From: Candidatus Poribacteria bacterium
Lineage (GTDB): Bacteria > Poribacteria > WGA-4E > WGA-3G
Assembly: GCA_022394775.1 (NCBI GenBank)
Contig: JAGFCB010000014.1
Coordinates: 7,715-71,714 of the forward strand
DNA length: 64,000 nt
Direction: 5' to 3'
A program made the translations under genes and the position numbers. Each line of letters opens with the position of its first letter. Position 1 is the first letter of the stretch. The notes below the pieces were generated by a model. The model was not told the origin of the DNA. It ran no database searches and saw only the letters and a program-made list of their open reading frames with translations. Below are positions 10,206-59,890 of the stretch, in pieces.

Positions 10206-10310
10206 TGATAGACTGCTGATGCTTTTCCTTGACACATCCCTGAAAAGTAGGTTAGACTTAATAAAAACACACTTCAACCCTAAACTGTGTCCTGAGGAGG
10301 TTCGTCTACC

Positions 10311-36301: not shown

Positions 36302-36399
36302 TAAAATGTAAATATAATTTAGCACGCCCTGAAACTTCATAAAACGGGGTGCGTAATTAACATTTAAATAGATTACCAAAAAAGCGTTGAAAGGGAGGA

Positions 36400-38567: not shown

Positions 38568-38674
38568 GATTTTCATCATTAACTGCTTTGGGCACTGCCT
38601 CATTACATTACGCAATCGTTTCTGGTGAAGAATAAACCCTTAACTCAAAAACACAGTCCGTAATGGAATGGAGG

Positions 38675-38742
38675 ACGGATATACGGAAAGGCACGGTGAG
38701 TGCCCAACCCCCCCTGACTTAACCGCAAGGTAAAATTAAAAA
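38675..38742 (+). promoter_or_regulatory. Conserved leader module (ATACGGAAAGG ... AACCGCAAGGTAAAATTAAAAA) abutting the ilvN ATG
   Basis: Same module as at 19650 and 39288. Confidence 0.6.
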
Positions 38743-39243
38743 ATGAATCCAGAAGAACGACATATCTTTTCCGTTTTAGTCGAAAACCGATTCGGAGTCC
38801 TCGCCCGTGTTGCAGGACTTTTCAGCGGGCGCGGCTTTAATATCGACAGTCTTAACGTCGCCGAGACGCATGACAAAAGCATTTCCCAGATAACCCTTGT
38901 CACGCACGGGGACGCACAGATCATTGAACAGATCTATCACCATTTAAACAGACTCATTGACGTTATTGAGGTGACCGACCTCTCCACCGCTGGAACGCAT
39001 GTTGAGCGAGAACTTGTCCTTATCAAGATCGCTACCGATGATCCTCAAAAACGTACCGAGGTTCTACAAGTCGCGGAAGTCTTCCGAGGGCGGGTTATAG
39101 ATATGAAGCCTGCCTCACTTGTCCTTGAAGTTACAGGGGATGAAGGGAAATTGAAAGCGGCGATTGATGTTTTCAATACGTACGGTATCCTTGAGTTAGC
39201 ACGCACCGGCAAAATAGCGATGCTGCGTGGATCTGAAAAATAA
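38743..39243 (+). CDS. ilvN: Acetolactate synthase small (regulatory) subunit
   Basis: ACT domain RHIFSVLVENRFGVLARVAGLFSGRGFNIDSL. Confidence 0.95.
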   Translation: MNPEERHIFSVLVENRFGVLARVAGLFSGRGFNIDSLNVAETHDKSISQITLVTHGDAQIIEQIYHHLNRLIDVIEVTDLSTAGTHVERELVLIKIATDDPQKRTEVLQVAEVFRGRVIDMKPASLVLEVTGDEGKLKAAIDVFNTYGILELARTGKIAMLRGSEK

Positions 39244-39287
39244 TCTTTTAACGATCCGCAAAGTAAGTCCAAGCATCGCGCCGGGCT

Positions 39288-39378
39288 GGATATACGGAGA
39301 GAACTGTTTTTCCATACAAGGCTCCTGAACGAACCGCAAGGAAATACAAAAAGACGAACCGCAAGGAAATATAAAAAT
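39288..39378 (+). promoter_or_regulatory. Conserved leader module (TATACGGAGAG ... 2x GAACCGCAAGGAAATA(C/T)AAAAA) abutting the ilvC ATG
   Basis: Tandem duplication of the 22-nt unit, as seen upstream of hppA. Confidence 0.6.
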
Positions 39379-40371
39379 ATGGCAACGATTTATTACGAGA
39401 GTGATGCTAATTTTGATTTACTGAAAGAACGCACCGTCGCTGTTGTTGGCTACGGAGCACAAGGACGCGCACAGTCGCTAAACCTCAAAGACAGCGGGGC
39501 AAACGTGATTGTCGCATTATACGAAGGCAGCCCTTCAAAAGCCCGCGCAGAGGCAGAAGGCTTGAGCGTCAAGAACGTTGAAGAAGCCGCAGCAATGGCC
39601 GATATTGTTCAGGTACTCATACCTGATGAACGCCATGCAGCCGTCTATCGTGACCAGATCGCCCCGAATATGGAAGCAGGCAATATGCTGCTTGTCTCAC
39701 ACGGGTTTAGTGTCCATTTTGGGCAGATTGTACCCGCCAGCGATATTGATGTCGCAATGATTGCACCGAAAGGCCCCGGATCCCTCGTTCGTGAAGTGTT
39801 TGAAGGCGGTGGCGGCGTGCCGTGTCTTATCGCTATCCATCAAGATACGACGGGTCTCGCACGCGATGTCGCACTCGCTTATGCGAAAGGCATCGGCGGC
39901 ACGCGCTCAGGGGTCATCGAAACCACGTTCCGTGAGGAAACCGAAACAGATCTCTTCGGTGAACAAGCTGTCCTGTGCGGTGGAACCGCTGCACTCATCA
40001 AAGCCGCCTTCGATACACTTGTTGAAGCCGGTTACCAACCAGAGATGGCTTACTTTGAGTGTCTCCATGAGCTCAAGTTGATTGTTGATCTAATTTACGC
40101 CGGCGGGTTAAGCAAAATGCGGAATGATATTAGCAATACTGCCGAATTCGGGGATCTCACACGTGGTCCGCAGATTATTGACGACGGTATCCGAGATAAA
40201 ATGCGCCAAATCTTGAAGGATGTGCAGGAAGGTGTTTTTGCACGGGAGTGGGTCTTGGAAAACGAGGCGAATCAACCCGTACTCAGCGCACTCCGCCGAC
40301 AGGAAGCAGAACTCCAGATTGAAGAGGTTGGCAAAAATCTGCGTAGCATGATGAGTTGGCTTGACGAATAA
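39379..40371 (+). CDS. ilvC: Ketol-acid reductoisomerase
   Basis: [23 protein letters not shown] motif; class I KARI length. Confidence 0.95.
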
Positions 40372-45235: not shown

Positions 45236-46705
45236 CTATTTCACATCGCTCCGTAAAAACGTTAAGACAGCCGCCATAAACAGAAGTAGCGCGAGTAAAA
45301 CTAACAACGTCAGGTCCAACAGTGCTTCTTTGAAAGTGATACCTAAAGTCAATTCGTCTGAAAATTTAGGAATACTATTAAAAGCAACCGGTTTTTGGGA
45401 TAACCCTTCCTTTACAAGATAGACATGGTGACTTTCATTGTCTCCTCTGTCCTCTGATTTGATGAAGTCGATAAACTGTTGTCTGTAGCGTCGCGTTTGT
45501 TGCACGAACCTTTGATGTCTGGCAAATCCTGTGCCTGCCAGAGATTCTACGGCGTATGTGTAAATAGCCGCCGGGGATAGCCGCGTAATTTGTTGTGTAA
45601 ACGCAACCTGTGCAAACTGTTTATTTAAATGTTCATCATCAAATCTGCTCTTTGCATCAGCATGTTCATTTAGGTAGTCAGCCCACATCCTTAACACCTC
45701 AATTTTAGGTGGTTGGTCAGAAGGCGAACCTGTTCGGTACAGTTTGTCTCCTGCTTTGTGTCGATTATCAATTGCGTCCTCCTTTGCTTTCTTTATCCGA
45801 GATATTTCACTTCTGGAGGGAACCTGCTTGAAACCGCTTGCCAATACTCCCATTGTGTTCGGAATAAGCACCACAAAGACGATCCAAATTAACAACAACG
45901 TCAGTAAGCTGCTTGACGAATTAGAAAATTGACTTGAGATAAACAATCCAAGCCATAAGAATATTGAGATGTAGATCATAGAAATAACACAGATTATTCC
46001 CACTCGCGCCCATTCGTCTCCGCTAAATGACGCTAATCTTGACGCGCTGACGACCATTAAGTTCAGTAATACGCCAATAAACAAGGGAATCAAGATCGTG
46101 AGAAACGCACCCGTGAATTTTCCGAGAAGTACAGTCGCTCGTGACACGGAATTAGCCATGAGTAAGCTTAACGTTCCTGTTTCACGCTCTCCAGAGATGG
46201 TGTCATAAGTGAACAGAATCGCCATAAAACTCATCACCACTCCGATGATGAACGTCCAATCTAATTCCGTGAAATTGGGTAGCGAATCGTTTTTACGGGA
46301 TGTGTCCTGTGGGTACTGAAGCCACCAGTTTGCTGACCAAGAATACTGGAAACTCAAATCAGGCGTTGTCATGCCAATACCATAGCCGCCACTGGAAGCA
46401 CCTTCAACTCGCTTTGGTAAGTTCGCATCTTCACCAGTAGCAATAAAGGTTAATGGACTCACGGGTTTGTACAAATTTCCTGGGCCTTTTACTGCAAGAT
46501 CGCCTAAATTGCTGCTTTTCTTTCTGATTGACGCAACGGCTTCGCGGGTGTCTTCGGAGTATTCTGTTATTCTTCGCGGATATTGACTGCTCACAAATAC
46601 CCCGGCATTCATCACCATTAGCACCATCACCAGAATTAGCGTGAGGGCAAACCGAAAACGCGTCACATTATCAAGGATTTCCCGTTTTGCTATGTGCCAA
46701 ATCAT
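45236..46705 (-). CDS. ABC-2-type transporter permease-like membrane protein, paralog 1
   Basis: N-terminus MIWHIAKREILDNVTRFRF parallels paralog 2's MMLWAIIRREITANILSFRF. Multi-TM core plus a large extracytoplasmic loop. RBS AGGAAGGAAG. The 46735 start in the ORF track is an extension. Confidence 0.6.
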   Translation of the reverse strand: MIWHIAKREILDNVTRFRFALTLILVMVLMVMNAGVFVSSQYPRRITEYSEDTREAVASIRKKSSNLGDLAVKGPGNLYKPVSPLTFIATGEDANLPKRVEGASSGGYGIGMTTPDLSFQYSWSANWWLQYPQDTSRKNDSLPNFTELDWTFIIGVVMSFMAILFTYDTISGERETGTLSLLMANSVSRATVLLGKFTGAFLTILIPLFIGVLLNLMVVSASRLASFSGDEWARVGIICVISMIYISIFLWLGLFISSQFSNSSSSLLTLLLIWIVFVVLIPNTMGVLASGFKQVPSRSEISRIKKAKEDAIDNRHKAGDKLYRTGSPSDQPPKIEVLRMWADYLNEHADAKSRFDDEHLNKQFAQVAFTQQITRLSPAAIYTYAVESLAGTGFARHQRFVQQTRRYRQQFIDFIKSEDRGDNESHHVYLVKEGLSQKPVAFNSIPKFSDELTLGITFKEALLDLTLLVLLALLLFMAAVLTFLRSDVK

Positions 46706-46737
46706 ATCGCTTCCTTCCAGACAACTCAGAACCACTA

Positions 46738-48228
46738 TTACACAACATCATATCGCAGGAATGAGATAAATGCACCCATGAAGAGTAGGATGTTTAATAT
46801 AGCGAGTGTCATAATGTCTAATGTTGCGCGTTGCAGACTACTGCCAATGCCTTCGCTCTGTTCCTTAAATTTTGGAACTTTACCTAAATCAAAAGGCTCG
46901 TCGAATTCAGTCGTAAACCATCTGCGTGAAGAAAATATTTTTTCATCTCTCAGATAGTCGATCCATTCACGGCGATATTGTCGCGTCTGTTCCATAAATC
47001 GCCAGAAACTTCCCAAATCTGTTTCTGCCAGAATTGCAGCGGTGTTATAATAAACCGCTGCCGGAGATATACGCGATATGTTTAGTGCCAATAGAGATTG
47101 TCTGTTTGGGTTTTTGTCGAGATACGCTTTGCGTATTTGCCAGATCCTGTCAGCGTATTGCGCACGGAGATTTTCCTTAAACTCGTAGCACTCTTGGGCA
47201 AGAGGCAGGCCTTCTTCATTCCGAAAACCGCTCGCACTGACTGTCTCTCCACTGTCGTAATCATTGACACCTGATCGGGAACCAATGCCACTCGGATTAG
47301 CCAGGTCAAGAGAAGACTCCACCCCTCGTTTTTGTAAGTAGTCTTTGACTTCGGTTTCAAATTTTTTCCACTGTTCGCCCGCCTGTTCTTTATAGGGCTC
47401 CTCCGATTGTATTGGGCTTGCATGTTCCACTAATAAAACTGTTAGGTTCGGAACGATAAGTACGAAAAGTATCCAAACGCACATTGAGAACATCAGAGTG
47501 ATAGAAGGCCTGTCCGTTCGAGTGGAAAGAAAAAGTCCGATAAGAAAAAAGAGAGATACATAGAGCATCGATACAAGGAAGATTAGCAATATCCGTATCC
47601 AATCTGAACTGTTGAAAGAGACGTAAGGAGAGAATTGTATCACCAATAAGCCTGCAACAAAACTCGCAATAAGCGGAAGAGAAATAGATACCATTCCTGC
47701 AATGTATTTTCCCAAAAGCAGTGTCGGCCTCGCAACCGCACAAGAGAGTGTTAAGCTTAAGGTTCCCGCCACCTTCTCCCGCGATATCGCGTCGTAAGAA
47801 AAGAGCAGTGCCAGCAGACTCATTACAACTTGGCAGATTACCGTGAAGTCAATAGAGGAAAAGATGTTCAGATATGGGTTATCAGAACCGTGTTTTTCGG
47901 CAACGGCGGGGACATATCCGTGTGCCACCGTTACTGTATTTCCTTTCCTTTTATCCACGCCTTCGTTGAAAATGCTAAGTAGCTTCGGGCTTCTATCACA
48001 CTTTAACATGTGAGTGAGTCCGAATTCAGAGTATTTCGTTACCTGATTTATCCTATCTTCATTTTCTCGAATAGCAGTTTGGTAGCTTTGGAGTCTATCC
48101 TCATAGCCCCTGGTCAAAACGAAGAGATTTGTCACAATCAGAGAGAAATAGATGAGGAGCCCCATCAGGAATCTGAAACTTAAGATATTCGCTGTAATTT
48201 CCCTTCTAATAATTGCCCAAAGCATCAA
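46738..48228 (-). CDS. ABC-2-type transporter permease-like membrane protein, paralog 2
   Basis: Same architecture and length as paralog 1. No ATPase gene is adjacent. Confidence 0.6.
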   Translation of the reverse strand: MMLWAIIRREITANILSFRFLMGLLIYFSLIVTNLFVLTRGYEDRLQSYQTAIRENEDRINQVTKYSEFGLTHMLKCDRSPKLLSIFNEGVDKRKGNTVTVAHGYVPAVAEKHGSDNPYLNIFSSIDFTVICQVVMSLLALLFSYDAISREKVAGTLSLTLSCAVARPTLLLGKYIAGMVSISLPLIASFVAGLLVIQFSPYVSFNSSDWIRILLIFLVSMLYVSLFFLIGLFLSTRTDRPSITLMFSMCVWILFVLIVPNLTVLLVEHASPIQSEEPYKEQAGEQWKKFETEVKDYLQKRGVESSLDLANPSGIGSRSGVNDYDSGETVSASGFRNEEGLPLAQECYEFKENLRAQYADRIWQIRKAYLDKNPNRQSLLALNISRISPAAVYYNTAAILAETDLGSFWRFMEQTRQYRREWIDYLRDEKIFSSRRWFTTEFDEPFDLGKVPKFKEQSEGIGSSLQRATLDIMTLAILNILLFMGAFISFLRYDVV

Positions 48229-48510: not shown

Positions 48511-49305
48511 TTAAACGGGATCCAAAAACCCCAATTCACCTAACCGATTAATCCACCGTTGTCGCTTTTCATTTCCCGCTCGGTTTTCAACCCAATGTGG
48601 ATCATAGAGTGAGGTACCTGGTCGGTTAAAATGTTCGGGACTCTTCGCGTTGCTTCGCGCGCGATTGCGTGTGGCAGCTTCCTCTTCAGGAGTCTTCGGG
48701 TTGTTATAATAAACCACAGTGCACATTCGGCGATCATCGTTGCCGCCCCAGCTGGCGTGCCAGCAACGCATATCAAAGGCGACTACATCCCCCGGTTCGG
48801 ATTTACAAATATAACTCGGCACCTCACAAATCTCCGATCCCAATTCATTTAAATTTTCACGTAGATCATCGTGCAGCGGATTCTTATGAGAACCCGGAAT
48901 CAGTCGCAACGCACCACTTTCAGCAGCAACGGGTTCAAGGTAATATGCGAATTTCACGCCATAGCAGTCTTGGGTTAGATCGGCACTGTGGTCCGGATGC
49001 CAATTGGTATTGCCGACATAACGGTTCGCATCCGAGACAACGAGAAATACGTCATCCCCGTAAAGCTGCTCTGCCACTTCACAGAACCTTGGATCTTCTG
49101 GCAGCTTCGTAAAAAATGGCGTTTCAGGTCCCAGCATCGGCAGCCAATGTCGGTGTGTGCCATCAAACGGTGCGTGACGATACGCTGTCTCCATCGCCGC
49201 TTCAAACTCTTTGTGTATGGTGTTCAGTTCGTCTGGGTTGAGTAACTGCCGAAAAATCAGGAATCCGAAGGTGTGGAAGTGCTTGATTTGCTGTTCTGTA
49301 AGCAT
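48511..49305 (-). CDS. Phytanoyl-CoA dioxygenase (PhyH) family protein
   Basis: PhyH-like N-terminus QQIKHFHTFGFLIF; WHPDHSAD; RLIPGSHK. Confidence 0.7.
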   Translation of the reverse strand: MLTEQQIKHFHTFGFLIFRQLLNPDELNTIHKEFEAAMETAYRHAPFDGTHRHWLPMLGPETPFFTKLPEDPRFCEVAEQLYGDDVFLVVSDANRYVGNTNWHPDHSADLTQDCYGVKFAYYLEPVAAESGALRLIPGSHKNPLHDDLRENLNELGSEICEVPSYICKSEPGDVVAFDMRCWHASWGGNDDRRMCTVVYYNNPKTPEEEAATRNRARSNAKSPEHFNRPGTSLYDPHWVENRAGNEKRQRWINRLGELGFLDPV

Positions 49306-49321: not shown

Positions 49322-50347
49322 TCATCGCGCTAACTTCTGTTGCAGTTTGGGGCTATCTGTGACCTCCCCATTCACAATCCAGGGTGGCATTTGCCCAGAA
49401 GCCACATCAATAATGCTACCGCACGCGCTCTTAGCATTGCCGTCGAAACACTCATCCGTCCAGCAGATACTGTGCGGCGTAGCGATAACGTTGTCCAGAC
49501 TTAAGAGCGGATCATCATCGCGAATCGGTTCTTGCTCAAAGACATCGAGTCCAGCCCCTTGAATCCGTCGATTTTGAAGTGCTTCTGTAAGTGCCTTTTG
49601 GTCAACGATGGGACCGCGCGCTGTGTTAATCAGGTAGGCTGTCGGCTTCATCAGCCCGATACGTCTCTCATCAACAAGACCACGCGTCTCTTCATTTAGT
49701 GGACAACAGACACAGACAAAATCAGCGGTTCGCATCAAAGTGTCCAAGTCAACAAGTTCTACGCCGACTTCTGCTGCCTCAGCAGGTGTGACGTACGGAT
49801 CGGAGGTGATATGGCGCATTCCAAAAGGTTTTGCCAGTTTGAACGCCTCTTTTCCAATGTTACCCATACCAACAAGTCCCAAGGTCCTGCCTACCAATCC
49901 CATCCCTCTATAGTTTTGGGTATTTCTCCATCCACCTGAACGGGTAAGTCGATCTTTTATCAGCAACTGATGGCTCAACGACAAGACAAAAGTCATGATG
50001 GAAGTAGCAACCGGGCGACGAACGCCATCCGGTGCGATCGTCAGCAGCACGCCATTTTCGGTACAGGCTTCCACGTCCACCTTATCGTATCCCACACCGA
50101 AGCGAGCAATGACTTTCAATCTATCAGCACTAGTCAACGTCTCCGCTGTGATGCCCGCACCCAAAACTAAGAGCGCATCATAATCTTGCACCTGTGTTGC
50201 CTGTAACACCGGTGTGTTTTCTGAAATATATTCCCACTGTAGACCGGCGCCGTCAAAAAGCGGACCGGCAATGTCGTCTAAATCGCAGGTGCCATCGGGT
50301 CCCAAAAAGTCCCGCGTAACACCTACGCGAAATACAGATTTATCCAT
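49322..50347 (-). CDS. D-isomer-specific 2-hydroxyacid dehydrogenase (NAD-binding)
   Basis: GLVGMGNIGKEAFKLAKPFGM Rossmann motif; catalytic region VLLTIAPDG...R..AT; C-terminal HS..WT. Confidence 0.8.
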   Translation of the reverse strand: MDKSVFRVGVTRDFLGPDGTCDLDDIAGPLFDGAGLQWEYISENTPVLQATQVQDYDALLVLGAGITAETLTSADRLKVIARFGVGYDKVDVEACTENGVLLTIAPDGVRRPVATSIMTFVLSLSHQLLIKDRLTRSGGWRNTQNYRGMGLVGRTLGLVGMGNIGKEAFKLAKPFGMRHITSDPYVTPAEAAEVGVELVDLDTLMRTADFVCVCCPLNEETRGLVDERRIGLMKPTAYLINTARGPIVDQKALTEALQNRRIQGAGLDVFEQEPIRDDDPLLSLDNVIATPHSICWTDECFDGNAKSACGSIIDVASGQMPPWIVNGEVTDSPKLQQKLAR

Positions 50348-50376: not shown

Positions 50377-52179
50377 TTACTCCGATTCAAGCGATGCTCT
50401 ACGGATGTATTTCCACCCTATTGGCGAAAGTTTAATATTTTTAACCCTTCTGTCAATAACCAAAAGCTGTTGTGCGTGCGCCAACGGCACCCACGGCGCG
50501 TCTTCATGAAAAATTGCTTGTGCTTGCCGATAAAGGGCAGTACGCACATCTCGATCGGTAGAATGTGTCCCTACCCTATCTATGCCACGCAATGCCGGGT
50601 TATTCGCGAACTCCTGAATGTCTTGATCAGTGCTCGTCCTGGCACGCTCCAGAATGTGCTGCAGCTCCTCGTTTCGGTAGAACGAGATATTATATGCTGG
50701 TTTCTCTGCAGATGGTATACTCAAAAGCGTGTAGAGAAAATTATCAGGGTCTGCCACGTCGGCGATCCAACCTAACATCGCCATATCGTGCTCTCCGTTT
50801 GCTGTTTTATCGAGATAGATCCCCCAGTCGTCCGTCACAATTCTCGCTTCAACGCCAATAATTTGGAGGTCAGCTTGAATGGCTTCTGCCAGTGCCATTC
50901 CGTCAGGAATGTACGGGCGCGGCACGGGTAATGCCCAGAGGGTCGTCTCAAAACCTTCGGCATACCCCGCCTCAGCGAGGAGCCGTTTTGCGAGTTCTGG
51001 ATCGTATGCGTAGTCTTGAATCGAATCGTCATAACTCCAGAGTGTGGGCGGAAGCGGATTCTTCGCAGGGATGCCTAAGCCCTGATAAAGACGGTCAACG
51101 ATTTCGGTTTTGTTAATGGCATGGTTAATCGCGAGCCGGACTTTGAGGTTATCAAAAGGAGGCTTTTCCATGTTCATCGCCAAATAGCCGATATTTAGGC
51201 TCGGTTGTATAAGAATCTCAAACTCTGGATCGCCTTGAAGTCGTGCTATTACGTCAGGGTTCGGAAGGTCCATGACGTGGATATTACCTTGCTGAAGTTC
51301 GTCGAAACGCTCAGAATTGTTCGGAATGGATCGAAAAATAAGCCTATCTAATGCGGGGCTTCCTGCCCAATGTTGACTGTTTGCTGCAAGGGTAATTGTG
51401 TCGTCCCGAACCCAGTGAACGAACTTGAAGGGACCCGTGCCTACCGGATTATTGCCAAAATCTTCGCCAAAACTTTGAACAGCTATCGGGCTCACAATAG
51501 AAAATGCGGTGCCTGCCAATGTACTGATAAACGGCGCATACGGTGTTTTAAGTTGAATCTGCACCGTAAACGGATCAAGCGCAATAATCTGGTCGATGAA
51601 TTGTTCATGAAAAGTAGGAAATAGGGCGAGTGGACGAGTGAGTGAAAAAACGACTGCGTCGGCATCAAATGGGGTACCATCGTGGAATTGGACACCTTGC
51701 CGCAATTGAAATGTCCATATTAAGCCATCAGCGGAACGCTGCCACGTTTCAGCTAAACCGGGTTCAAGATTAGTCGTGGCTTCTCTATATTGAACCAGTG
51801 TATCATAGAGCATATCGCAAACTTTTCCCGATTCTCCATCAATCGCTTCAGCCGGATCAAGTGTAAGAGAGTCACCGCCTCGCCCGAAGATCAGTGTACC
51901 GCCTGTCCGCGTAACCGCTGCTTCACTGCCCCCCATAATGTTAGCAATGAAAACTAAATCAAGGATATTCACAGTGCCATCATCGTTGACATCAGGGTTC
52001 GTTTCACCCGTTAGATTGGTACTTTCAGCCAACCGCGAAGCTACAAGGACTAAGTCAAGGATATTCACAACACCATCGCCATTGGCATCGCCTGCGATTT
52101 TCGCCTCTTGCGCACTGCTTCCTGTTAAAAATAGAACTGATAGTCCAAGAATTATTGCAATAAAAATTAAATTTTTCAT
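50377..52179 (-). CDS. Solute-binding protein family 5 (DppA/OppA-like) with N-terminal dockerin type I repeats
   Basis: Dockerin segments DANGDGVVNILDLVLV and DVNDDGTVNILDLVFI, then SBP_bac_5-like GGTLIFGRGGDSLTLDPAEAIDGES. ATG at 52179 (MKNLIF); the ORF-track start at 52191 is a TTG. Confidence 0.7.
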   Translation of the reverse strand: MKNLIFIAIILGLSVLFLTGSSAQEAKIAGDANGDGVVNILDLVLVASRLAESTNLTGETNPDVNDDGTVNILDLVFIANIMGGSEAAVTRTGGTLIFGRGGDSLTLDPAEAIDGESGKVCDMLYDTLVQYREATTNLEPGLAETWQRSADGLIWTFQLRQGVQFHDGTPFDADAVVFSLTRPLALFPTFHEQFIDQIIALDPFTVQIQLKTPYAPFISTLAGTAFSIVSPIAVQSFGEDFGNNPVGTGPFKFVHWVRDDTITLAANSQHWAGSPALDRLIFRSIPNNSERFDELQQGNIHVMDLPNPDVIARLQGDPEFEILIQPSLNIGYLAMNMEKPPFDNLKVRLAINHAINKTEIVDRLYQGLGIPAKNPLPPTLWSYDDSIQDYAYDPELAKRLLAEAGYAEGFETTLWALPVPRPYIPDGMALAEAIQADLQIIGVEARIVTDDWGIYLDKTANGEHDMAMLGWIADVADPDNFLYTLLSIPSAEKPAYNISFYRNEELQHILERARTSTDQDIQEFANNPALRGIDRVGTHSTDRDVRTALYRQAQAIFHEDAPWVPLAHAQQLLVIDRRVKNIKLSPIGWKYIRRASLESE

Positions 52180-52180
52180 A

Positions 52181-53773
52181 TTATTCTGCAAGCCAAATTT
52201 GGCGGAAGTACCTCCATTTCAGTGGATGCAATTTGAGGTCCTTAACCTTTTTGTTGATGACTAAAATCTGTTTGGCGTGCGCCAACGGCACCCACGGCAC
52301 ATCTTTGTGGAAAATCTGCTGTGCTTCTTGATAGAGCGAGATCCGTTTGTCTCGATCTGTAGTCGATCTTGCCTGTTCTAAGACGTTTTGCATCTCATCG
52401 CTCCGATAAAATGCAATGTTACCAGCAGGTTTCTCCGCTGACGATTTACTTAAAAGAAAATAGAGGAAGTTATCTGGATCGCCGAGATCCGCACTCCATC
52501 CTAACATTGCCATATCGTGCTCGCCATTCTTCGTTTTCTCAAGGTAAGTGCCCCAATCGTAGGTCACGATTTTCGTCTCAATTCCGATGTTTCGGAACTC
52601 AGATTGCAGAACTTCCGCAAGGGCACGTCCGTCGGGGATATACGGGCGCGGCACCGGCAGTGCCCAAAGTGTCGTCTCAAAGCCATCAGGATAACCTGCC
52701 TCTGCAAGAAGCCGCTTTGACAGTTCAGGATCGTAGGCGTAAGCCTCAATGGAATCATTGTAACTCCAAAGTGTCGGTGGAATCGGGTTTTTCGCGGGGA
52801 TCCCCAAACCTTGATACAGGTGTTCAATAATCGCAGATTTGTTAATCGCGTGATTGATAGCGAGTCGGACTTTGAGATCGTCAAATGGCGGCTTGTCCAT
52901 GTTCATTGCCAAATAACCGATGCTCATCCCGGGTTGTGATAGCAATTCAAGTGATGCATCATCTCGAATCTGTTGCAGATCGTCCGGGTTCGGAAACTCC
53001 ATCGCATGGAGGCTACCTTGCTGAAGTTCAATGAGACGTACCGAGTTGTCAGGAATAGAGCGGAAGATAACCCTGTCTAACATCGGACGTCCGCCCCAAT
53101 AAGCCTCGTTCGCTTCAAGCACGATTTTATCTTTCCTGTCCCACCTCACAAATTTGAAAGGTCCTGTGCCAACTGGATTGTTGGAAAACTCGTCACCCCA
53201 TTTTTGCACTGCTGTTGGGCTGACGATTGAAAAAGGCGTTATGGCAATCGTGTAAATAAACGGCGCGTAAGCCGTCTTAAGACGAATCTGGACAGTAAAT
53301 TCATCAATAGCAGTAATTGTATCCACGATCTCTGCCAAACCGGTGGCTATCCAATAAATATAGCTGCCGCCAACGTTATGAAACGGATGCGTGTCATCGT
53401 GTTGGCGGTTAAGCGAAAAAAGAACGGCTTCGGCGTTGAAAGGAGTGCCATCATGGAAGGTTACACCTTGTCGCAAGTGAAACGTCCAGGTCAAACCATC
53501 TGCTGAACTTTCCCAACTTGTAGCGAGACCCGGTTCAATTTCAGTGCTGCCATCTTTGTATTCAATGAGTGTATCGTAGATGTTGTCGCAAACTTTGAAA
53601 GATTCTCCATCTTCTTCAAGTGCTGGATCCAATCCCACAGAGTCGCCACCACGCCCAAAAATTAGGGTGCCACCGCGTTTTTGATGAGAATCTGCAAACG
53701 CCGCTGAAGGCACTACAAAGGGTAGGACCAGAATGATGAGTAAGAAGACCTGTGCGTAAAATCTCTTTTGCAT
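52181..53773 (-). CDS. Solute-binding protein family 5, paralog without dockerin
   Basis: RGGTLIFGRGGDSVGLDPALEEDGES. Collinear similarity to the 50377 gene throughout. Confidence 0.75.
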   Translation of the reverse strand: MQKRFYAQVFLLIILVLPFVVPSAAFADSHQKRGGTLIFGRGGDSVGLDPALEEDGESFKVCDNIYDTLIEYKDGSTEIEPGLATSWESSADGLTWTFHLRQGVTFHDGTPFNAEAVLFSLNRQHDDTHPFHNVGGSYIYWIATGLAEIVDTITAIDEFTVQIRLKTAYAPFIYTIAITPFSIVSPTAVQKWGDEFSNNPVGTGPFKFVRWDRKDKIVLEANEAYWGGRPMLDRVIFRSIPDNSVRLIELQQGSLHAMEFPNPDDLQQIRDDASLELLSQPGMSIGYLAMNMDKPPFDDLKVRLAINHAINKSAIIEHLYQGLGIPAKNPIPPTLWSYNDSIEAYAYDPELSKRLLAEAGYPDGFETTLWALPVPRPYIPDGRALAEVLQSEFRNIGIETKIVTYDWGTYLEKTKNGEHDMAMLGWSADLGDPDNFLYFLLSKSSAEKPAGNIAFYRSDEMQNVLEQARSTTDRDKRISLYQEAQQIFHKDVPWVPLAHAKQILVINKKVKDLKLHPLKWRYFRQIWLAE

Positions 53774-54085
53774 AAATTTCTCCGATGTGTACTAAAAATA
53801 TATTCCATAATACAGGCTTTTCTGCGAAATGTCAAGCGGACTTTTCTGAAAACTGATAAATATCCTTCATCTTTACGGTTTCTATACGTTCCACGCGCCT
53901 ACCGTGCTACGAAGATTTGAAACCACATCCCATAAAAGTCGTTCTGTTAAAAGGCGTAGTATATTAAGTGAAACGAGCAAAATTTTGAATACCCTGAGTT
54001 CGAGGCACATAGATGTTTCAAAACATTACTGGTAAGGCATGGTGTAAATCTCCCGCTGTGAACACATCGCGTCGAAAAAATAAAT

Positions 54086-56008
54086 ATGTTATCTTTTGAA
54101 CAACTCCTCCAGAATTTAACGGATACAACGCAGCCGAACCTTGTGCGAAGCACTGCTATCGCTGGGATTGTCGCGCAATACGGTTCACAGGGCGTGAAAT
54201 TTCTGGTTGAGGCACTCAACGACGCTGACGCAGTAATACGGCGCGAGGCGGCGAAAGCACTTCAGGATTTAAATGCCACAAGTGCAATAGAACCGCTTCT
54301 CCACGCACTGCAAACGGAGTCGAATGATATAACGCTTTGGGCAATGCTTGAAGCGATCAGTGAATTGGGATCCCCCAGTGTGCTGCCTGTACTTGAATCA
54401 CTTTCTAATGTTGATTCTATGCTCACACGGATAGAAATCAAGAAAAGTATCTCCCGAATCCAGACCCGCCATGCCGATGAGGCTGCTCAGATAGACGCAT
54501 CCAACCATACACCTATAGAAAAAACAGAAGAAACCGCAACAAATGAAGCATCAATTGACAAACGACCGAACATTTCTATAGAATTAACCTCTGCAAATCC
54601 CCTCACCGATCCAACGCAAGATACTATCGATACTGCAACTGTCTCGGAAAAGCCGACTGAAACAGAAAACAAGGTCCAGACGACTGATCAATCTGGTGAA
54701 ATTATAAGTGAAACCGAGCCTACAGAAACAGAAGATGCCGTCACGAATTTGCTTACCGATCCGGATGAAAGGGTTCCAACGGACTCCGAAGATACAGTTG
54801 AACCCATAGATGATACGCAATTTGCTGAAGCGGCAGTTGAAACTATAGATGAGGGAGAAGATACGGAGACAGTCGCAGCTGATGCGGAATCACCACAACC
54901 GGAAGAAAATACGGATATAAAGGATTTATCGGAAACAATAGCACAATCGCCGCGACTTGCTGGTTCGTCTGTTAACCTGCCTATGTTGGCACCTAATGCC
55001 GCGACCGTGCCGTATCACGCAACGGAAACCTCACTTGAACCAACACATGCCAATTTCTTTCTCACACTGCTGCACCCAAGCAAACATTTCTCCAAACAAT
55101 GGGTATCCCGAACGCGCGCATATCTAATATTGTGGGCTGTGCTCATTGCTGCAGTCGTTGGTTTCACACAACATCAAAAGCACTTCAGAGCAGAGACAAC
55201 CTCACTCTTCTCTATCGGCCTTTCGGCTGGTGAACTGCCGGAACTCGTAAAACGATCCTTGGCTGAAGGGGACTTCTACATTCAAGAAGGTCTTTATAGA
55301 AAAGCTATTAGTTCTTATGAATTAAGCCGTAGGCTTGACGTGCTGCCGCTTAGTTTCTATCGGAAACTCGGATTTGCATACTTCAAGGAGGGGCAATACG
55401 CCCTTGCCGTTGAAGCGTATGAACTATTTTTAGAAGCACGGAATAACGGAACGCCTGATGTGTTTGCGGCTGAAGCCTCGCTTTCGGATGTATACCCGCT
55501 CACTTCGGTCGAAGAACAGATTGCGCGCGACTACGAAACCTATAATATCCTTGGCATGGCGTACGCAAAACTTGGACGTGTATTAGATGCCCAGCGCGCT
55601 TATAGGCAGGCAATACGTATGGCGCCAAAGTATGGGGAAGCCTACAATAACCTCGCTCGTCTCTATGCGGACAACCACCAACAGCTGTTAGCAGCAGACC
55701 TCGGGAATCCGACAATTTCTCAAAAACTGAGACTCGCTGAGGCATTGGCATATACGGCAGTTACATTGAATCCTGATGTAGCCGCATATCATGATACCTT
55801 GGGCTGGATTCTGTCAAAGCGGGGACAGGTGAATAAGGCGATCAAAACCTTAGAACGGGCTATTGATCTTCAAAAAGATGCTGTTGAACCGCACTACCAT
55901 CTCGCACAAGTCGCACTTGAAGTCAAGGATCGAAAAAAAGCGGTAAAAGCGATCCGTAACGTGTTCAAACTCCAGCCCGCCTTTGTGTCTCTCAAAACTG
56001 GTGAGTAG
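54086..56008 (+). CDS. HEAT-repeat / TPR-repeat membrane protein with an acidic low-complexity linker
   Basis: HEAT (PBS-lyase type) region IRREAAKALQDL; E/T/D-rich segment; TM helix AYLILWAVLIAAVVGF; C-terminal TPR region YNILGMAYAKLG...AYNNLARLY. Confidence 0.6.
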   Translation: MLSFEQLLQNLTDTTQPNLVRSTAIAGIVAQYGSQGVKFLVEALNDADAVIRREAAKALQDLNATSAIEPLLHALQTESNDITLWAMLEAISELGSPSVLPVLESLSNVDSMLTRIEIKKSISRIQTRHADEAAQIDASNHTPIEKTEETATNEASIDKRPNISIELTSANPLTDPTQDTIDTATVSEKPTETENKVQTTDQSGEIISETEPTETEDAVTNLLTDPDERVPTDSEDTVEPIDDTQFAEAAVETIDEGEDTETVAADAESPQPEENTDIKDLSETIAQSPRLAGSSVNLPMLAPNAATVPYHATETSLEPTHANFFLTLLHPSKHFSKQWVSRTRAYLILWAVLIAAVVGFTQHQKHFRAETTSLFSIGLSAGELPELVKRSLAEGDFYIQEGLYRKAISSYELSRRLDVLPLSFYRKLGFAYFKEGQYALAVEAYELFLEARNNGTPDVFAAEASLSDVYPLTSVEEQIARDYETYNILGMAYAKLGRVLDAQRAYRQAIRMAPKYGEAYNNLARLYADNHQQLLAADLGNPTISQKLRLAEALAYTAVTLNPDVAAYHDTLGWILSKRGQVNKAIKTLERAIDLQKDAVEPHYHLAQVALEVKDRKKAVKAIRNVFKLQPAFVSLKTGE

Positions 56009-56023
56009 CGACAACGCAGGATT

Positions 56024-59000
56024 TCAACGAATAATAGTAAGTTTCCCAACACGCCGATCCTTTTCAGACGAAAGCACATAAATATAAATACCGCTACTGA
56101 TGCCTGATACATCCCAAACTTTTTTATCCCGCTCATGTTCCGTCTTAGCGAACGACGCAATACAGTTACCACTAACATCGTAAATATAAATATTAGTCCC
56201 CACAGGCAGGTTATCAAACGTAACCTGATCGAATTCCACAGGATTCGGATAGACAATTATATCGCCTAATTCGGGGACTGGTAGTGTTACCGTCAGTATT
56301 CTTGCCTCGTCTTCAAGGTCGGCACCGTGTATGTCTGAAAGTTGTAATGCCTCAATCTGATAGCGGCTGCCCGTCCGAAAGACTGTCGAAGGAAATGTGA
56401 GAACAACTCGATGCCCCGTCTTATCAAGAATCGCTGAACGTGGGGTGTAACTCTCTATCCCGCTTGCCATATCTCGCTGCTTGTGCAAGCGGTAGCGTCC
56501 AGCGTAGGTAGCGGAAATGCCCATCGGTTTGTCAAATGCCAAGGACAGCTGATTCGGTGGTGAATACACCGCATTTCGTAGTCGGGGTCGTTGGGTTGCT
56601 ACAACAGATACAGGTATAGATCGTGCTGAAGATTTACCGCTTGAATCCTGAGACGTAAGCGCGTACCAGTAAATGCGGCCTGCTGTGAGTTCTCTATCTG
56701 TAAAGTCTGTCCCCTGAATCCCTTCTCGAATCTGTGCCACCGAATCTTCACTTTCGCCGCGATAGAGGGTATATGTTGCAACGTTCGGCACTATCTGCCA
56801 TGAAAGCTGCACGGATGTTGGTCCAACAGGTTTAGCCGTAATATTCCACGGAATACTCAGCGGACCGCTTGATTGTAAGTTCAAAGCTGTAGGTGTTCCA
56901 AAGACAGTTAAGGCATTATTGCTATTAAACAACAAAACATTCTCACCATCTCCATTAGTATCTACTACAATCGGATTGAAAGTGTTGGTCGCAGCATGAT
57001 GCCAGATGGGACGATAATCTATTCCATCATATTGCACAAGATAGAAGTTCGGTGCAAGGGCAAGGCATAATTCATTCTGTCCGTCGTTGTTCGCGTCGGC
57101 AATAGTCATACCGTTCCCACCATTTCGCACATCATGGATACGTTGTGTCCATACCGGACGGTAGGTATCATCGCCATCGGACGTAAAAACAGTTAAAAGC
57201 CAGTGGTTGTACCGAATGTCAAGTACGATAGTACCGACCTCAGTGCCTGTCATCGCGCAGACAGCAAACTCCGCTTTACCATCACCATCCATGTCCCCAG
57301 CAGCAAAGAGTTGAGGACTGCCTTCCGGCAATCTAACTGCCCATGTCTGTCTATATTGGTTATTTCCAATTGCTTCGTATACAAATACGTCCCCGTCACT
57401 ATCCCCGATTAAAATTTCCATCTGGCCATCGTTATCAAAATCACCTGTGGCAGCATTCGCGCGAATCCCGTTGCTGCCTAACGTCAGGTTTTCAAAGGTG
57501 GCGGTAGGACGGTGATTGTTATCTCCGACTGCTTCATATACCAAAATGGAATTGGTGGCATCAGCGCGAGTGAAAATCTCAGGTTTACCATCTGCATCTG
57601 CATCCACCATTGCTATACTCCAGTGCCCTTGTGATTCCCAGATGCGTTCCGTTGGAAACCCATTTTGTGTGGGTTGTTCCAGTAAAAATGTCGCCTCTGG
57701 AGAGTTACATAATATCTCTATAAGTCCATCTTTATCTGTATCCAAGATTGCTCGCGGTAGGAACGGTTCATTGAATGCAAAGATTTCTCTAAATGAACCG
57801 TCAACCGCTATCTCAATAATCTGTACCAGATTTGTACCCATTTCTGCTGTGATAAGTTCGAGTCTTCCATTTCTGTTTATATCGACTGGCGGACCAACAG
57901 CATGTCGCGCACGTGCGGTTGATGTTCCTGCCGAGAGATGTAGCGGATTTATAGGCGCGTTTTGCATCTCTATCTCATACAACGCCTTATTATTGTCATC
58001 AACCGACAACAACCCGGCGCGATTTTCCATCGACAAACGATACTTATAAGCACCAGTGGATATACCTAAATCAGACAAATTCACAATATGAAGAAAGTTC
58101 TCTGAATCTGAACGGGCAGTCCTAACGACGTTCCCGTTTGCTTGAAAAATTTCTATGCCGCCAATAGATACTTCATGCGTCTGCCACATCACCACCGATT
58201 CAACGGTATTTCCGACAAACCATGCCTGCGATTCATGCATAGAAATACGCGGTGCTGTCCGATTCACTTCAACAACGGTCCTGTCTCTTTTGCTGTTGCC
58301 GTTTTCCGATTGAACGCTCAGGCGCACTGTATATTGACCCTCAGATAAGCCAGAGGTGTCCCATTTGTACAGGCAAACATTGAATTTCGGTTTCGTTTGC
58401 ACAGTTCCCAATGGAAACCATAAATTCGGCACTTCACCAATCCCATATTCCAACCAATACTCAGTAAATCCAATCCCACCGGCACTACCGAAAATCTCAA
58501 TTTTCTCAATATCGCTGGATTCTGTAGTTTGTAGGGATATCTGATGCGTATCAATCTGTGCGATTAGCTCTGTTGAAGCGGTAAGTGCAGCGGACGCATC
58601 AAGCAAACCAGCACCAACAAGACCACTAATAAAAAGCGGTTCTGCAGTGGTAATAAGAGTTTCCTTAATCCCCGCATTAGTGTAATCCGGGTTTCCCGAC
58701 AAAACCAAAGCAGCCACCCCAGATACATGCGCAGCTGCCATAGATGTGCCAGATAAATTTTGATACCCACCGTTCAGATATGTGCTGAGGATTTCGTCAC
58801 CCGGAGCAGCTATATCAATTGTTGCTCCGAAATTGGAATCCGTGTACAGCTGCCGCTCCGCATCAATCCCTGCTACAGAGATAACAGTTTTCAGCCCGGC
58901 AGGGTACCACGATCCGACTGCGCCGTCATTTCCAGCGGCAGCAACCAGCACACACCCACGGGCGTAAGCATACGCTATAGCATCTTCTATAATGAATGCA

Positions 59001-59890
59001 TTTACCGTGTCACCCCAGCTCATGTTAATCACCTGGGCACCATTATCCGCTGCGTAAACGATAGCCGCAGCAACATCGTCGTTCTGGAGATACCCACCGC
59101 CCCCATATTTAAAATCGGCTCTCAACGGCATGAGACGACACCGCCATGCTATGCCCGCAATTCCAATGCCATTGTTTGCTGCGGCAGCGATAATGCCGGA
59201 GACGTGCGTCCCGTGTCCAATTTCGTCCTCTGGTTCGTTATCGCGCACTGTCCAATCCCCGCTACCCGGTAGGGTAGGGGCATCACTGAAATCCCAGCCA
59301 TTAATATCATCAACGTAGCCGTTTCCATCGTCGTCAATACCGTTCCTTGGAATCTCACGAGCATTTCGCCACAGTTGTGAACGAAATTCTGGATGTTGCA
59401 TATCTACACCGCCATCTACAACAGCCACAGTGACTGCTGGAGTCCCTTGCTCAATACCCCACGCTTCTGACATATTCATTAAGGCTAAATTCCATTGTTC
59501 ATCATAACTCGGATCGTTCGGAACTACTTCAGCACAAGGTCGATTGAGGCGGTTCATCTCAACCGCTTCAATCGCAGGGTGTCTTGCATACCGTTGCCGC
59601 AACGGTTCTAATGCCCATGCTGCTGGAAACTGAATCAGATAATTACGGCGGAGCAGCGCATGTTGTCCGGCAGGTGTCGTCGGTGAAAAAACAGGTGAAA
59701 CAGACACCGCACCGAGTTTTCTACTCAACCTATCAAACTGCTTGCTGGAAACGTTAGGACGTAGGCGGACAATCAGTTCACCCGGAGTGTGAGTGATTTG
59801 AGAAAAGTTGTCTGAGTTGCTCTGCGCAAAAACAAATTGGGCATTTATGAACGACACGAGAATATAGATATAGATAGATTTTTTCGTCAT
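56024..59890 (-). CDS. Secreted subtilisin-like serine peptidase (S8) with FG-GAP/VCBS repeats, Ig/Fn3-like region and T9SS C-terminal sorting domain
   Basis: Catalytic triad motifs VAVVDGGVD, HGTHVSGIIAA, GTSMAAAHVSGVAAL; signal peptide; repeats GDFDNDGQMEILIGDSDGD etc.; C-terminus IIVYPNPVEF...NIYIYDVSGNCIA...GIYIYVLS...KLTIIR matches the Por_Secre_tail pattern. Confidence 0.85.
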   Translation of the reverse strand: MTKKSIYIYILVSFINAQFVFAQSNSDNFSQITHTPGELIVRLRPNVSSKQFDRLSRKLGAVSVSPVFSPTTPAGQHALLRRNYLIQFPAAWALEPLRQRYARHPAIEAVEMNRLNRPCAEVVPNDPSYDEQWNLALMNMSEAWGIEQGTPAVTVAVVDGGVDMQHPEFRSQLWRNAREIPRNGIDDDGNGYVDDINGWDFSDAPTLPGSGDWTVRDNEPEDEIGHGTHVSGIIAAAANNGIGIAGIAWRCRLMPLRADFKYGGGGYLQNDDVAAAIVYAADNGAQVINMSWGDTVNAFIIEDAIAYAYARGCVLVAAAGNDGAVGSWYPAGLKTVISVAGIDAERQLYTDSNFGATIDIAAPGDEILSTYLNGGYQNLSGTSMAAAHVSGVAALVLSGNPDYTNAGIKETLITTAEPLFISGLVGAGLLDASAALTASTELIAQIDTHQISLQTTESSDIEKIEIFGSAGGIGFTEYWLEYGIGEVPNLWFPLGTVQTKPKFNVCLYKWDTSGLSEGQYTVRLSVQSENGNSKRDRTVVEVNRTAPRISMHESQAWFVGNTVESVVMWQTHEVSIGGIEIFQANGNVVRTARSDSENFLHIVNLSDLGISTGAYKYRLSMENRAGLLSVDDNNKALYEIEMQNAPINPLHLSAGTSTARARHAVGPPVDINRNGRLELITAEMGTNLVQIIEIAVDGSFREIFAFNEPFLPRAILDTDKDGLIEILCNSPEATFLLEQPTQNGFPTERIWESQGHWSIAMVDADADGKPEIFTRADATNSILVYEAVGDNNHRPTATFENLTLGSNGIRANAATGDFDNDGQMEILIGDSDGDVFVYEAIGNNQYRQTWAVRLPEGSPQLFAAGDMDGDGKAEFAVCAMTGTEVGTIVLDIRYNHWLLTVFTSDGDDTYRPVWTQRIHDVRNGGNGMTIADANNDGQNELCLALAPNFYLVQYDGIDYRPIWHHAATNTFNPIVVDTNGDGENVLLFNSNNALTVFGTPTALNLQSSGPLSIPWNITAKPVGPTSVQLSWQIVPNVATYTLYRGESEDSVAQIREGIQGTDFTDRELTAGRIYWYALTSQDSSGKSSARSIPVSVVATQRPRLRNAVYSPPNQLSLAFDKPMGISATYAGRYRLHKQRDMASGIESYTPRSAILDKTGHRVVLTFPSTVFRTGSRYQIEALQLSDIHGADLEDEARILTVTLPVPELGDIIVYPNPVEFDQVTFDNLPVGTNIYIYDVSGNCIASFAKTEHERDKKVWDVSGISSGIYIYVLSSEKDRRVGKLTIIR

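Follow-up and report, generated by a model that had tools for sequence, protein, structure and literature searches.

The binding proteins of known ATP-binding cassette (ABC) importers are free in the periplasm, anchored by a lipid, or fused to the permease. Anchored receptors of Gram-positive bacteria and archaea are lipoprotein solute-binding proteins (SBPs) or substrate-binding domains fused to the permease, as in GlnPQ and OpuA, and the E. coli protein MppA is an unlinked cluster-C binding protein that uses OppBCDF. Here we describe a tandem pair of SBP genes in a 64-kb stretch of DNA (contig JAGFCB010000014.1; the whole analysed stretch of 64,000 nucleotides is referred to as the window) from Candidatus Poribacteria, a phylum of abundant, uncultured sponge symbionts. 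Both products are related to DppA, and the downstream one carries a type-I dockerin between its signal peptide and its binding domain; they are called hereafter the plain copy and the dockerin copy, or dockerin-SBP. On balance, and with moderate confidence, the dockerin copy is probably an accessory peptide receptor that serves a dispersed Dpp importer and is tethered through a cohesin. If this is true, tethering of a receptor through a non-covalent, Ca2+-dependent contact between dockerin and cohesin would represent a fourth arrangement of such proteins, modular and reversible.

As for MppA, the Poribacterial SBP genes lie away from the permease that they presumably serve, and they include a paralogue with potentially shifted specificity. 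Unlike the MppA case, the primary receptor is also unlinked, the permease pair stands alone, and the accessory copy bears a tethering module. The likeness to the anchored receptors of Gram-positive bacteria and archaea lies in the proposed outcome, a receptor kept at the membrane or envelope instead of diffusing freely. However, those anchors are covalent (lipid or polypeptide fusion), whereas the proposed Poribacterial anchor would be non-covalent and Ca2+-dependent, and would operate in a diderm. The dockerin shares with the clostridial cellulosome type-I system (C. thermocellum Xyn10B, 1OHZ and 2CCL; B. cellulosolvens, 2Y3N) a duplicated 22-residue Ca-binding segment, and cohesins occur in the phylum. 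In contrast to the cellulosome, the dockerin is N-terminal where the usual position is C-terminal, its cargo is a transport receptor and not a carbohydrate-active enzyme, and the organism is a diderm. Moreover, the Poribacterial cohesins are found on lipoproteins and on proteins with a type IX secretion system (T9SS) tail, and not on S-layer-homology or sortase anchors.

Among published systems, the closest is the cohesin-dockerin complex proposed for Ca. Stygibacter (Cloacimonadota), built on a T9SS-tailed scaffoldin with a conserved C-terminal sorting domain (PMC8542988). Both cases involve a diderm candidate phylum, dockerin proteins bearing signal peptides, and a surface-sorted cohesin protein (PMC8542988). 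The Stygibacter dockerins, however, are C-terminal on hydrolases and peptidases, the scaffoldin comprises many cohesins together with carbohydrate-binding modules, and no binding-protein cargo is reported (PMC8542988). In the present locus, a DppA-type receptor is combined with a type-I dockerin. The sequence of the dockerin-SBP is not new, since public databases already list it, generically named and with a precomputed Pfam architecture: it is 100% identical to P0001, 'ABC transporter substrate-binding protein [Candidatus Poribacteria bacterium]' (P-numbers designate database proteins, and L-numbers the loci fetched for comparison). The literature searched returned no paper on dockerins or cohesins in Poribacteria, nor on a dockerin fused to a solute-binding protein. 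Domain identities and gene order are observed, as are the conservation of the fusion, the scattered dppBC genes, the cohesins of the phylum, the selection pattern and the losses; dockerin-cohesin binding, the compartment, the ligand and delivery to DppBC are inferred.

The tandem SBP pair

The ORF list reports two head-to-tail open reading frames (ORFs) on the minus strand, 52181-53773 (530 residues) and 50377-52191, which comprise the following features.

52181..53773, minus strand: plain DppA-like SBP, 530 residues, Sec signal peptide MQKRFYAQVFLLIILVLPFVVPSAAFA followed by DS (SBP_bac_5, E = 3e-114)
50377..52179, minus strand: dockerin-SBP, 600 residues, with signal peptide, type-I dockerin and DppA-like SBP domain (ORF and Pfam)
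52108..52179, minus strand: Sec-type signal peptide of the fusion, MKNLIFIAIILGLSVLFLTGSSA followed by QE, without a lipobox Cys (read by eye)
51940..52095, minus strand: type-I dockerin with two Ca-loop and helix segments, DANGDGVVNILDLVLVAS and DVNDDGTVNILDLVFIAN, and a linker ending in NP (Pfam Dockerin_1)
50719..51768, minus strand: SBP_bac_5 domain of the fusion, carrying R421, Y423 and D474 in the 600-residue numbering (Pfam and alignment)
50563..50634 (approximate), minus strand: insertion of about 24 residues, DQDIQEFANNPALRGIDRVGTHST, in the dockerin copy relative to the plain copy (BLASTP gap)

The junction between the two genes reads ...GAA TAA T ATG AAA AAT.... The more likely start of the dockerin-SBP is the ATG at 52179, giving 600 residues, and not the TTG at 52191 chosen by the ORF caller (604 residues). 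As this ATG sits one base past the TAA stop of the upstream gene, the junction suggests that the plain SBP and the dockerin-SBP are translationally coupled. Pfam assigns SBP_bac_5 (PF00496, gathering score 32.4 bits) to both proteins, at 382.5 bits for the plain copy and 343.3 bits (E = 2e-102) for the dockerin copy. BLASTP aligns the two with 62% identity across 521 residues, the dockerin copy displaying a 14-residue deletion and the 24-residue insertion listed above. This insertion is bordered by the near-repeats STDQD and STDRD, which hint at a local duplication or insertion within a surface loop.

A preliminary description of the window, made from its sequence, had reported two paralogous SBP_bac_5 genes, of which the downstream one has a type-I dockerin between signal peptide and SBP domain, and Pfam bears out both points. 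Dockerin_1 (PF00404) is found exclusively in the downstream SBP, at 39.7 bits for a gathering score of 22.9 bits (E = 5e-10; 54 of 57 profile positions, residues 33-84 of the 604-residue ORF). The gene and region were therefore correctly named, while the coordinates proposed for the module (51905-52080) were off by about 15-35 nucleotides, Pfam giving ~51940-52095. The two loops, D-A-N-G-D-G-V-V-N-I-L-D and D-V-N-D-D-G-T-V-N-I-L-D, carry Asp or Asn at positions 1, 3, 5, 9 and 12, and both the Ca-ligand positions and the NILDL helix starts are kept in 32 orthologues. The best PDB sequence matches of the module are dockerins that bind cohesins: 2Y3N_B (E = 4.6e-8), then 2CCL, 1OHZ and 1DAQ, among others. 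Since PDB dockerins match at E = 5e-8 to 1e-3 whereas calmodulin-type EF-hands return E values of ~0.5 or worse, the module is not a generic EF-hand or low-complexity sequence, an objection that the preliminary description had itself raised. Judged by its sequence, the dockerin of the fusion is a genuine type-I module.

Signal-peptide cleavage sites and lipobox calls were read by eye. Both SBPs of the window possess a Sec-type signal peptide, and the equivalent of that of the fusion is kept in the 32 orthologues. There is no Cys in the first 110 residues of either protein, nor in the signal peptides of the orthologues, and hence no lipobox. Pfam reports no T9SS tail of the Por_Secre_tail, CHU_C or FlgD_ig type on either SBP, and the C-terminus of the dockerin-SBP is the end of its paralogue's SBP fold. 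With a Sec signal peptide alone, and with neither lipobox nor T9SS tail, the protein is not predicted to cross the outer membrane.

The top NCBIfam model for both SBPs is DppA_dipep (NF043070), at 474.5 bits for the plain copy and 368.7 bits for the dockerin copy. Both fall short of its equivalog cut-off of 1005 bits and are hence DppA-like rather than certified DppA equivalogs. The plain copy matches the DppA structures 5F1Q, 8Z1Y and 1DPP at ~450 bits over the full length. Together with the DppA proteins of E. coli and Yersinia (1DPP, 1DPE, 5F1Q, 8Z1Y), the pair thus shares the SBP_bac_5 fold family, the ligand-clamp residues and a Sec signal peptide; besides the score, it differs from them in not lying beside dppBCDF, in being a tandem pair, and in the N-terminal dockerin of one member.

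In the 8Z1Y alignment, residue counting places Arg355 and Tyr357 of E. coli DppA within PVQRPY and Asp408 within GWTGD. We take Arg355 and Tyr357 to hold the carboxylate side of the peptide and Asp408 its alpha-amino group (E. coli mature numbering). The equivalents are R376, Y378 and D429 in the plain copy, and R421, Y423 and D474 in the dockerin copy, so that the comparison of pocket residues called for in the preliminary description finds all three in both proteins. On this alignment, short peptides with free termini would be the most economical ligand assignment. Nickel, opines, haem and oligosaccharides were considered and rejected, the NikA, AgaA/AccA, HbpA and OppA models scoring far below DppA and the clamp being intact.

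Conservation and divergence of the two copies

With one genome taken per species, a locus scan yielded 77 loci. Almost all stem from Poribacterial metagenome-assembled genomes, many of them complete chromosomes. A scripted census reveals a conserved gene frame: an S8 peptidase with a T9SS tail, a HEAT/TPR protein, the plain SBP, the dockerin-SBP where present, a 2-hydroxyacid dehydrogenase and, less constantly, a PhyH protein. The dockerin copy is intact in ~27 loci, and the adjoining plain copy is intact everywhere examined. At the protein level, all of the 120 homologue clusters listed (62-100% identity) combine Dockerin_1 with SBP_bac_5. Other arrangements comprise a second SBP copy without dockerin (L012, L028), three copies (L007, L011), and a solo dockerin-SBP in a different context (five loci).

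A neighbour-joining tree of 107 SBPs, computed without support values, places the outgroups first, then the Poribacterial SBPs linked to dppBC, and then a single duplication that gives rise to a plain clade with short branches and a dockerin clade with longer ones. The core of the dockerin copy diverges 1.53x as much as the plain copy, and it is the more divergent of the two in 316 of 325 genome pairs. The equivalents of Arg355 and Tyr357 are invariant across all clades. That of Asp408 is kept in the plain copies (54/54), the dppBC-linked SBPs (8/8) and the outgroups (8/8). It is missing from 22 of 36 members of the dockerin clade through a one-residue deletion (GWSAG-GDPD), whereas the copy of the window retains it (GWIADVADPD). 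The Asp408-less proteins are those of L002, L011, L014, L015, L017-L026, L037, L038, L049, L054, L065 and L066. The deletion suggests that this subclade may bind a ligand without a free N-terminal amine, and a ligand other than a peptide is conceivable for it.

In the lineage of the window, the ratio of non-synonymous to synonymous divergence (dN/dS) amounts to 0.04-0.08 for the plain copy, 0.12-0.15 for the whole dockerin copy and 0.18-0.37 for its dockerin segment, the values for the dockerin copy being computed against three orthologues of ~85% identity. As this indicates purifying selection on both copies, the dockerin segment included, the dockerin copy is functional in this lineage. The evidence fits an accessory paralogue that is selected where present, dispensable, and altered in specificity in one subclade. 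Comparison of the window with L001, L004 and L005 reports a lower dS in the dockerin copy (0.49-0.60) than in the adjoining plain copy (0.78-1.18); codon bias, recombination and gene conversion are possibilities. Plain copy, dockerin copy, dockerin-less copy, repeated losses and one subclade with a remodelled pocket together provide a natural experiment on the value of tethering.

A dispersed dpp system

The preliminary description had stated that the window contains no DppBCDF-type genes, and both searches agree. Among window ORFs of at least 150 residues there is no match to BPD_transp_1, OppC_N or ABC_tran, and tblastn with DppB, DppC, DppD and DppF probes from outgroup loci returns no match in the window or in any tandem-pair locus. 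In the 27 tandem-pair loci, no permease or ATPase gene is found within 10 kb on either side of the SBP pair. The outgroup loci, in contrast, follow the classic SBP-permease-permease-ATPase order, and in earlier-branching Poribacteria (L053, L060, L062, L064, L160) a dockerless SBP gene is followed contiguously by dppB and dppC. In two Poribacterial genomes, L056 (12897-20354) and L058 (14231-19930), a giant WD40/LRR/Big_1 'eukaryote-like' gene (up to 2,485 residues) is inserted between the canonical SBP gene and dppB.

In relatives carrying the pair, the permease genes are distant. On ERZ25072076:ctg246090_15x_c (5,507,996 bp), the SBP pair lies at ~3.999 Mb and dppB-dppC at ~4.893 Mb, 0.89 Mb apart, with no SBP gene and no ATPase gene beside the permease pair. 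On a 4,364,704-bp contig, ~1.08 Mb separates the SBP pair (~3.10 Mb) from dppB-dppC (~4.18 Mb). L080 and L081 (~10001-11880) comprise dppB-dppC alone, without adjoining SBP or ATPase genes, beside an HTH_3/Lactamase_B gene. ERZ18545484:ptg000386l combines a contiguous SBP-dppB-dppC cluster with a solo dockerin-SBP elsewhere on the chromosome. The dpp system of this lineage is therefore dispersed: an SBP pair without permeases and a permease pair without receptor are complementary. The term "orphan" given earlier to the pair holds locally, for the window and for the 10-kb flanks in relatives, but not for the chromosome, since dppB-dppC occur 0.9-1.1 Mb away in two relatives. Permease genes just outside the window had been named as an observation that would count against an orphan pair: in relatives none lies within 10 kb of the pair, yet in spirit the objection holds, as permeases exist far away. 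The pair is an orphan only locally, and a dispersed dpp system is not evidence against transport.

Cohesins and dockerins in Poribacteria

The preliminary description had advised searching for cohesins, and a search of relatives does find them. A phmmer search with the 68-residue dockerin returns 4,159 cluster representatives at E <=1e-3. In a Pfam census of 56 dockerin proteins sampled from these, Dockerin_1 is reported in all 56 and a cohesin in 8 of them. Four proteins display a Cohesin-Dockerin-T9SS C-terminal domain architecture, with Pfam cohesin scores (PF00963, cut-off 24.1 bits) of 70.7 for P0477, 39.3 for P0489, 37.4 for P0440 and 32.3 for P0486. Their dockerins are 48-56% identical to that of the window and their tails match Poribacterial proteins. 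The two cohesins of P0477 are the maximum seen, and no multi-cohesin scaffoldin was seen. P0440 and P0007, a dockerin-SBP 84% identical to that of the window, are each encoded on a 6,154,590-bp contig, a link that rests on equal size only.

A local hidden Markov model (HMM) built from these cohesins, and run over all fetched loci and the window, matched a single locus, L005, three times (E = 3e-38 to 8e-30). L005 is a Poribacterial chromosome whose dockerin-SBP is 85% identical to that of the window, and its three cohesin genes lie 1-4 kb upstream of the SBP pair.

L005, 6773-7444, minus strand: lipoprotein signal (...AVIITGC), Pro/Thr/Glu-rich linker and cohesin, 223 residues (51.7 bits)
L005, 5877-6692, minus strand: signal peptide, cohesin and T9SS tail, 271 residues (43.7 bits)
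L005, 4198-5664, minus strand: signal peptide, cohesin, dockerin and FGE-sulfatase domain, 488 residues (39.5 bits)

The co-occurrence of cohesins and a dockerin-SBP in one genome is thus established for L005. An FGE-sulfatase (formylglycine-generating-enzyme-like) domain, such as that encoded at L005:4198-5664, is uncommon as the cargo of a cohesin-dockerin adaptor; the phylum has many sulfatases. Scanning metagenomes with an alignment of the cohesins adds three proteins of X-Cohesin-Dockerin-T9SS-tail architecture (L083-L085), which match the local cohesin HMM, and a probable lipoprotein cohesin (L082). In other Poribacterial loci, dockerins are found just before the T9SS tails of WD40, LRR and cadherin proteins. 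Poribacteria hence possess a set of cohesins and dockerins linked to lipoprotein and T9SS anchors, whose dockerin-cohesin pairs could serve as orthogonal parts for protein assembly. The strongest matches to the dockerin of the window are P0362, P0365, P0378 and P0379, in which 7-9 tandem dockerins precede a Peptidase_S8 domain. Two other approaches were less productive: phmmer with a C. thermocellum CipA cohesin 2 probe found nothing among the dockerin matches, and masked all-against-all BLAST clustering did not single out the cohesin-bearing proteins, whereas Pfam scans of chosen subsets did.

Proposed role and alternatives

The SBPs of the window would be lineage-specific DppA paralogues in a Poribacterial genome with scattered dpp genes. 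The plain copy is presumably the primary, constitutive housekeeping receptor of the periplasm, which would bind short peptides with free N- and C-termini and hand them to the DppB-DppC permease encoded far off on the chromosome. The second copy would stem from one tandem duplication, followed by the gain of a type-I dockerin between signal peptide and binding domain. After Sec export and Ca2+-dependent folding, it would most likely dock onto the cohesin of an anchored protein. A lipoprotein cohesin in the periplasm could hold it at the membrane, much like a lipoprotein SBP of Gram-positive bacteria. This tethered-receptor reading draws support from the domains, the DppA kinship, the conserved fusion, the dispersed dppBC genes, the phylogeny, the cohesins of the phylum and the purifying selection.

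Several observations weigh against it. Cohesins adjoin the SBP pair in just one of the ~27 tandem-pair loci, L005, and there the adjacency may be fortuitous, because an IS-type (insertion sequence) transposase adjoins and the gap is prone to insertion; in other genomes the same gap holds defence genes or transposases. The local cohesin HMM reports no cohesin in the 64-kb window, which holds one dockerin only, and dockerin-cohesin specificity is not predictable from sequence with the methods used. The AlphaFold2 model of the dockerin-SBP, computed from 46 orthologues, is too poor for fold comparison and adds nothing to the case (mean predicted local distance difference test score, pLDDT, of 49; predicted template modelling score, pTM, of 0.30). 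On the transport side, no DppD or DppF ATPase gene is found in any fetched Poribacterial locus, nor beside any Poribacterial dppBC, no genome-wide search having been made; as these genes are not located, the Dpp importer is incompletely accounted for. Lastly, the dockerin copy is dispensable. It is missing from ~20 loci, and the nesting of these plain-only genomes among pair-bearing ones indicates repeated loss. In at least 4 further loci, and as many as 8, it has suffered deletion or frameshift: internal deletions and frameshifts disrupt it in L032, L035 and L036, a 98-residue C-terminal remnant persists in L046, and a single stop or frameshift is seen in L017, L024, L040 and L061. One member of the dockerin clade, that of L012, has lost its dockerin and yet stays intact.

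Among the alternatives, surface capture has some chance of being right, although it is an unlikely one. Here the dockerin-SBP would leave the periplasm and be held on T9SS-anchored cohesin scaffolds, where it would capture or sense the peptides released by the S8 peptidase without docking to a permease. In its favour, T9SS C-terminal sorting domains are carried by most of the Poribacterial cohesins found, WD40, LRR and cadherin surface proteins of the phylum typically have their dockerin just ahead of such a tail, and the gene of a T9SS-tailed S8 peptidase is conserved near the SBP operon. Furthermore, the dockerin copy never adjoins permease genes, and the loss of the Asp408 equivalent in one subclade suggests a changed role. 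However, the protein carries a Sec signal peptide without T9SS tail, lipobox or other recognizable outer-membrane export signal, and its C-terminus coincides with that of DppA. The copy of the window also retains the full DppA clamp and is spaced by 1 nucleotide from the plain receptor gene, with which it is likely co-transcribed, and a lipoprotein cohesin able to act inside the periplasm exists. The Sec-only signal therefore would favour the periplasm, while the T9SS-tailed cohesins and the conserved S8 protease neighbour keep surface capture alive. The preliminary description had proposed a tether to a cohesin-bearing surface scaffold, and a role in surface display or sensing instead of transport. 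The first idea stands insofar as cohesin anchors, some of them T9SS-tailed, occur in the phylum, though the surface is not the favoured place, the dockerin-SBP having no recognizable outer-membrane export signal. The second is possible and not favoured: the DppA clamp is kept, the permeases are dispersed rather than absent, and a lipoprotein cohesin would make an equally good periplasmic tether.

It is also doubtful that the module is dockerin-like without any cohesin partner, a Ca2+-binding appendage on an otherwise ordinary, free periplasmic SBP paralogue of shifted specificity. In that case it might help folding or stability in Ca-rich seawater, or bind sponge matrix or polysaccharide. Dockerin proteins do far outnumber cohesin proteins: cohesins accompany the dockerin in 8 of the 56 proteins of the census, and occur in 1 of 81 sampled loci versus 46 ORF segments matching the dockerin HMM, which are mostly the SBPs themselves. 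There are many stand-alone dockerin proteins of ~120 residues, although the dockerin-only search that found them returned almost only proteins of <=125 residues, probably a filter bias. The persistence of an intact L012 protein without dockerin points the same way. Against this, EF-hands are much poorer matches to the module than the dockerins that bind cohesins, both segments retain the symmetric helix residues that characterize such dockerins, and cohesins of a single, closely related type are found together with this type of dockerin, both within proteins and within genomes.

A broader scheme, improbable to us in about the same measure, is a non-cellulosomal cohesin-dockerin network of the envelope. 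Its members would comprise T9SS- or lipid-anchored cohesins, dockerin-tagged WD40, LRR and cadherin proteins, FGE-like enzymes and proteases. Within it, the scaffold would recruit the dockerin-SBP, a transport receptor, to a place beside secreted proteases, so as to channel host-derived peptides to the cell, and the protein would possibly be exported piggy-back on cohesin-bearing T9SS cargo. If true, this would constitute both a new way to anchor an ABC receptor and a nutrient-harvesting complex in a sponge symbiont.

E. coli DppA has a dual role in transport and in signalling through the Tap chemoreceptor. By analogy, the dockerin copy could signal through a membrane sensor without import, which we deem quite unlikely. 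It is unlinked from permease genes in all genomes examined, but no sensor kinase, methyl-accepting chemotaxis protein or regulator is conserved beside the pair, whose neighbours are the dehydrogenase, the dioxygenase, the HEAT/TPR protein and the protease. Moreover, since the plain copy, too, lies apart from permease genes and no SBP gene accompanies the bare dppBC pair in the genomes concerned, at least one SBP of the pair is needed for transport. Finally, that the dockerin copy of the window is a decaying duplicate without present function is very improbable in view of its intact 600-codon ORF, its dN/dS of 0.12-0.15 and its conserved dockerin and pocket residues, in spite of the repeated loss and pseudogenization in other lineages and the faster divergence in 316 of 325 genome pairs.

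Neighbouring genes and other observations

The genes and signals around the SBP pair are as follows.

53807..53835, minus strand: sigma-70-like promoter TTGACA-17-TATTAT, 5' of the plain SBP gene (11 of 12 consensus positions)
49322..50347, minus strand: D-isomer-specific 2-hydroxyacid dehydrogenase, 29 nucleotides 3' of the fusion (2-Hacid_dh_C, E = 1e-59)
48511..49305, minus strand: PhyH-family dioxygenase, 16 nucleotides 3' of the dehydrogenase, often but not always syntenic (Pfam and census)
54086..56008, plus strand: HEAT/TPR repeat protein, divergent from the SBP operon, conserved neighbour on the upstream side (Pfam and census)
56024..59890, minus strand: S8 subtilase, conserved neighbour, carrying FG-GAP repeats and a T9SS sorting domain at its C-terminus (Peptidase_S8, E = 5e-54; Por_Secre_tail, 51 bits)

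The plain SBP, dockerin-SBP, dehydrogenase and PhyH dioxygenase genes likely form a four-gene operon, a context unlike that of DppA. In the synteny census, nearly every Poribacterial locus has the dehydrogenase gene directly behind its one or more SBP genes. Promoter-like sites are no commoner in the region than in shuffled sequence, and the TTGACA-17-TATTAT site is hence suggestive only. The S8 subtilase is predicted to be a secreted or surface protease, and could provide peptides.

Two adjacent genes encoding ABC-2-type permeases (ABC2_membrane_2 and DUF3526) are located at 45236-48228 on the minus strand, and no ABC ATPase gene for them is found anywhere within the 64-kb window. Only in close relatives do they keep their place beside the SBP operon. 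As partners of the SBPs they were rejected, since they belong to another transporter family, are separated by a 282-nucleotide gap, and are missing from the locus in distant relatives.

The gap between the HEAT/TPR and plain SBP genes is an insertion hot spot, the equivalent in the window (~53774-54085) spanning ~310 nucleotides only. Elsewhere (L001/L003, L005 and L159) it is occupied by inserted genes, namely N6_Mtase/SIR2 defence genes (L001), an IS element with the cohesin cluster (L005) or a DDE transposase (L159). Further away in the window, a T-box leader (Rfam RF00230, 95.8 bits for a gathering score of 93) is found at 36378-36683 on the plus strand, upstream of ilvB-ilvN-ilvC (36891-40371).

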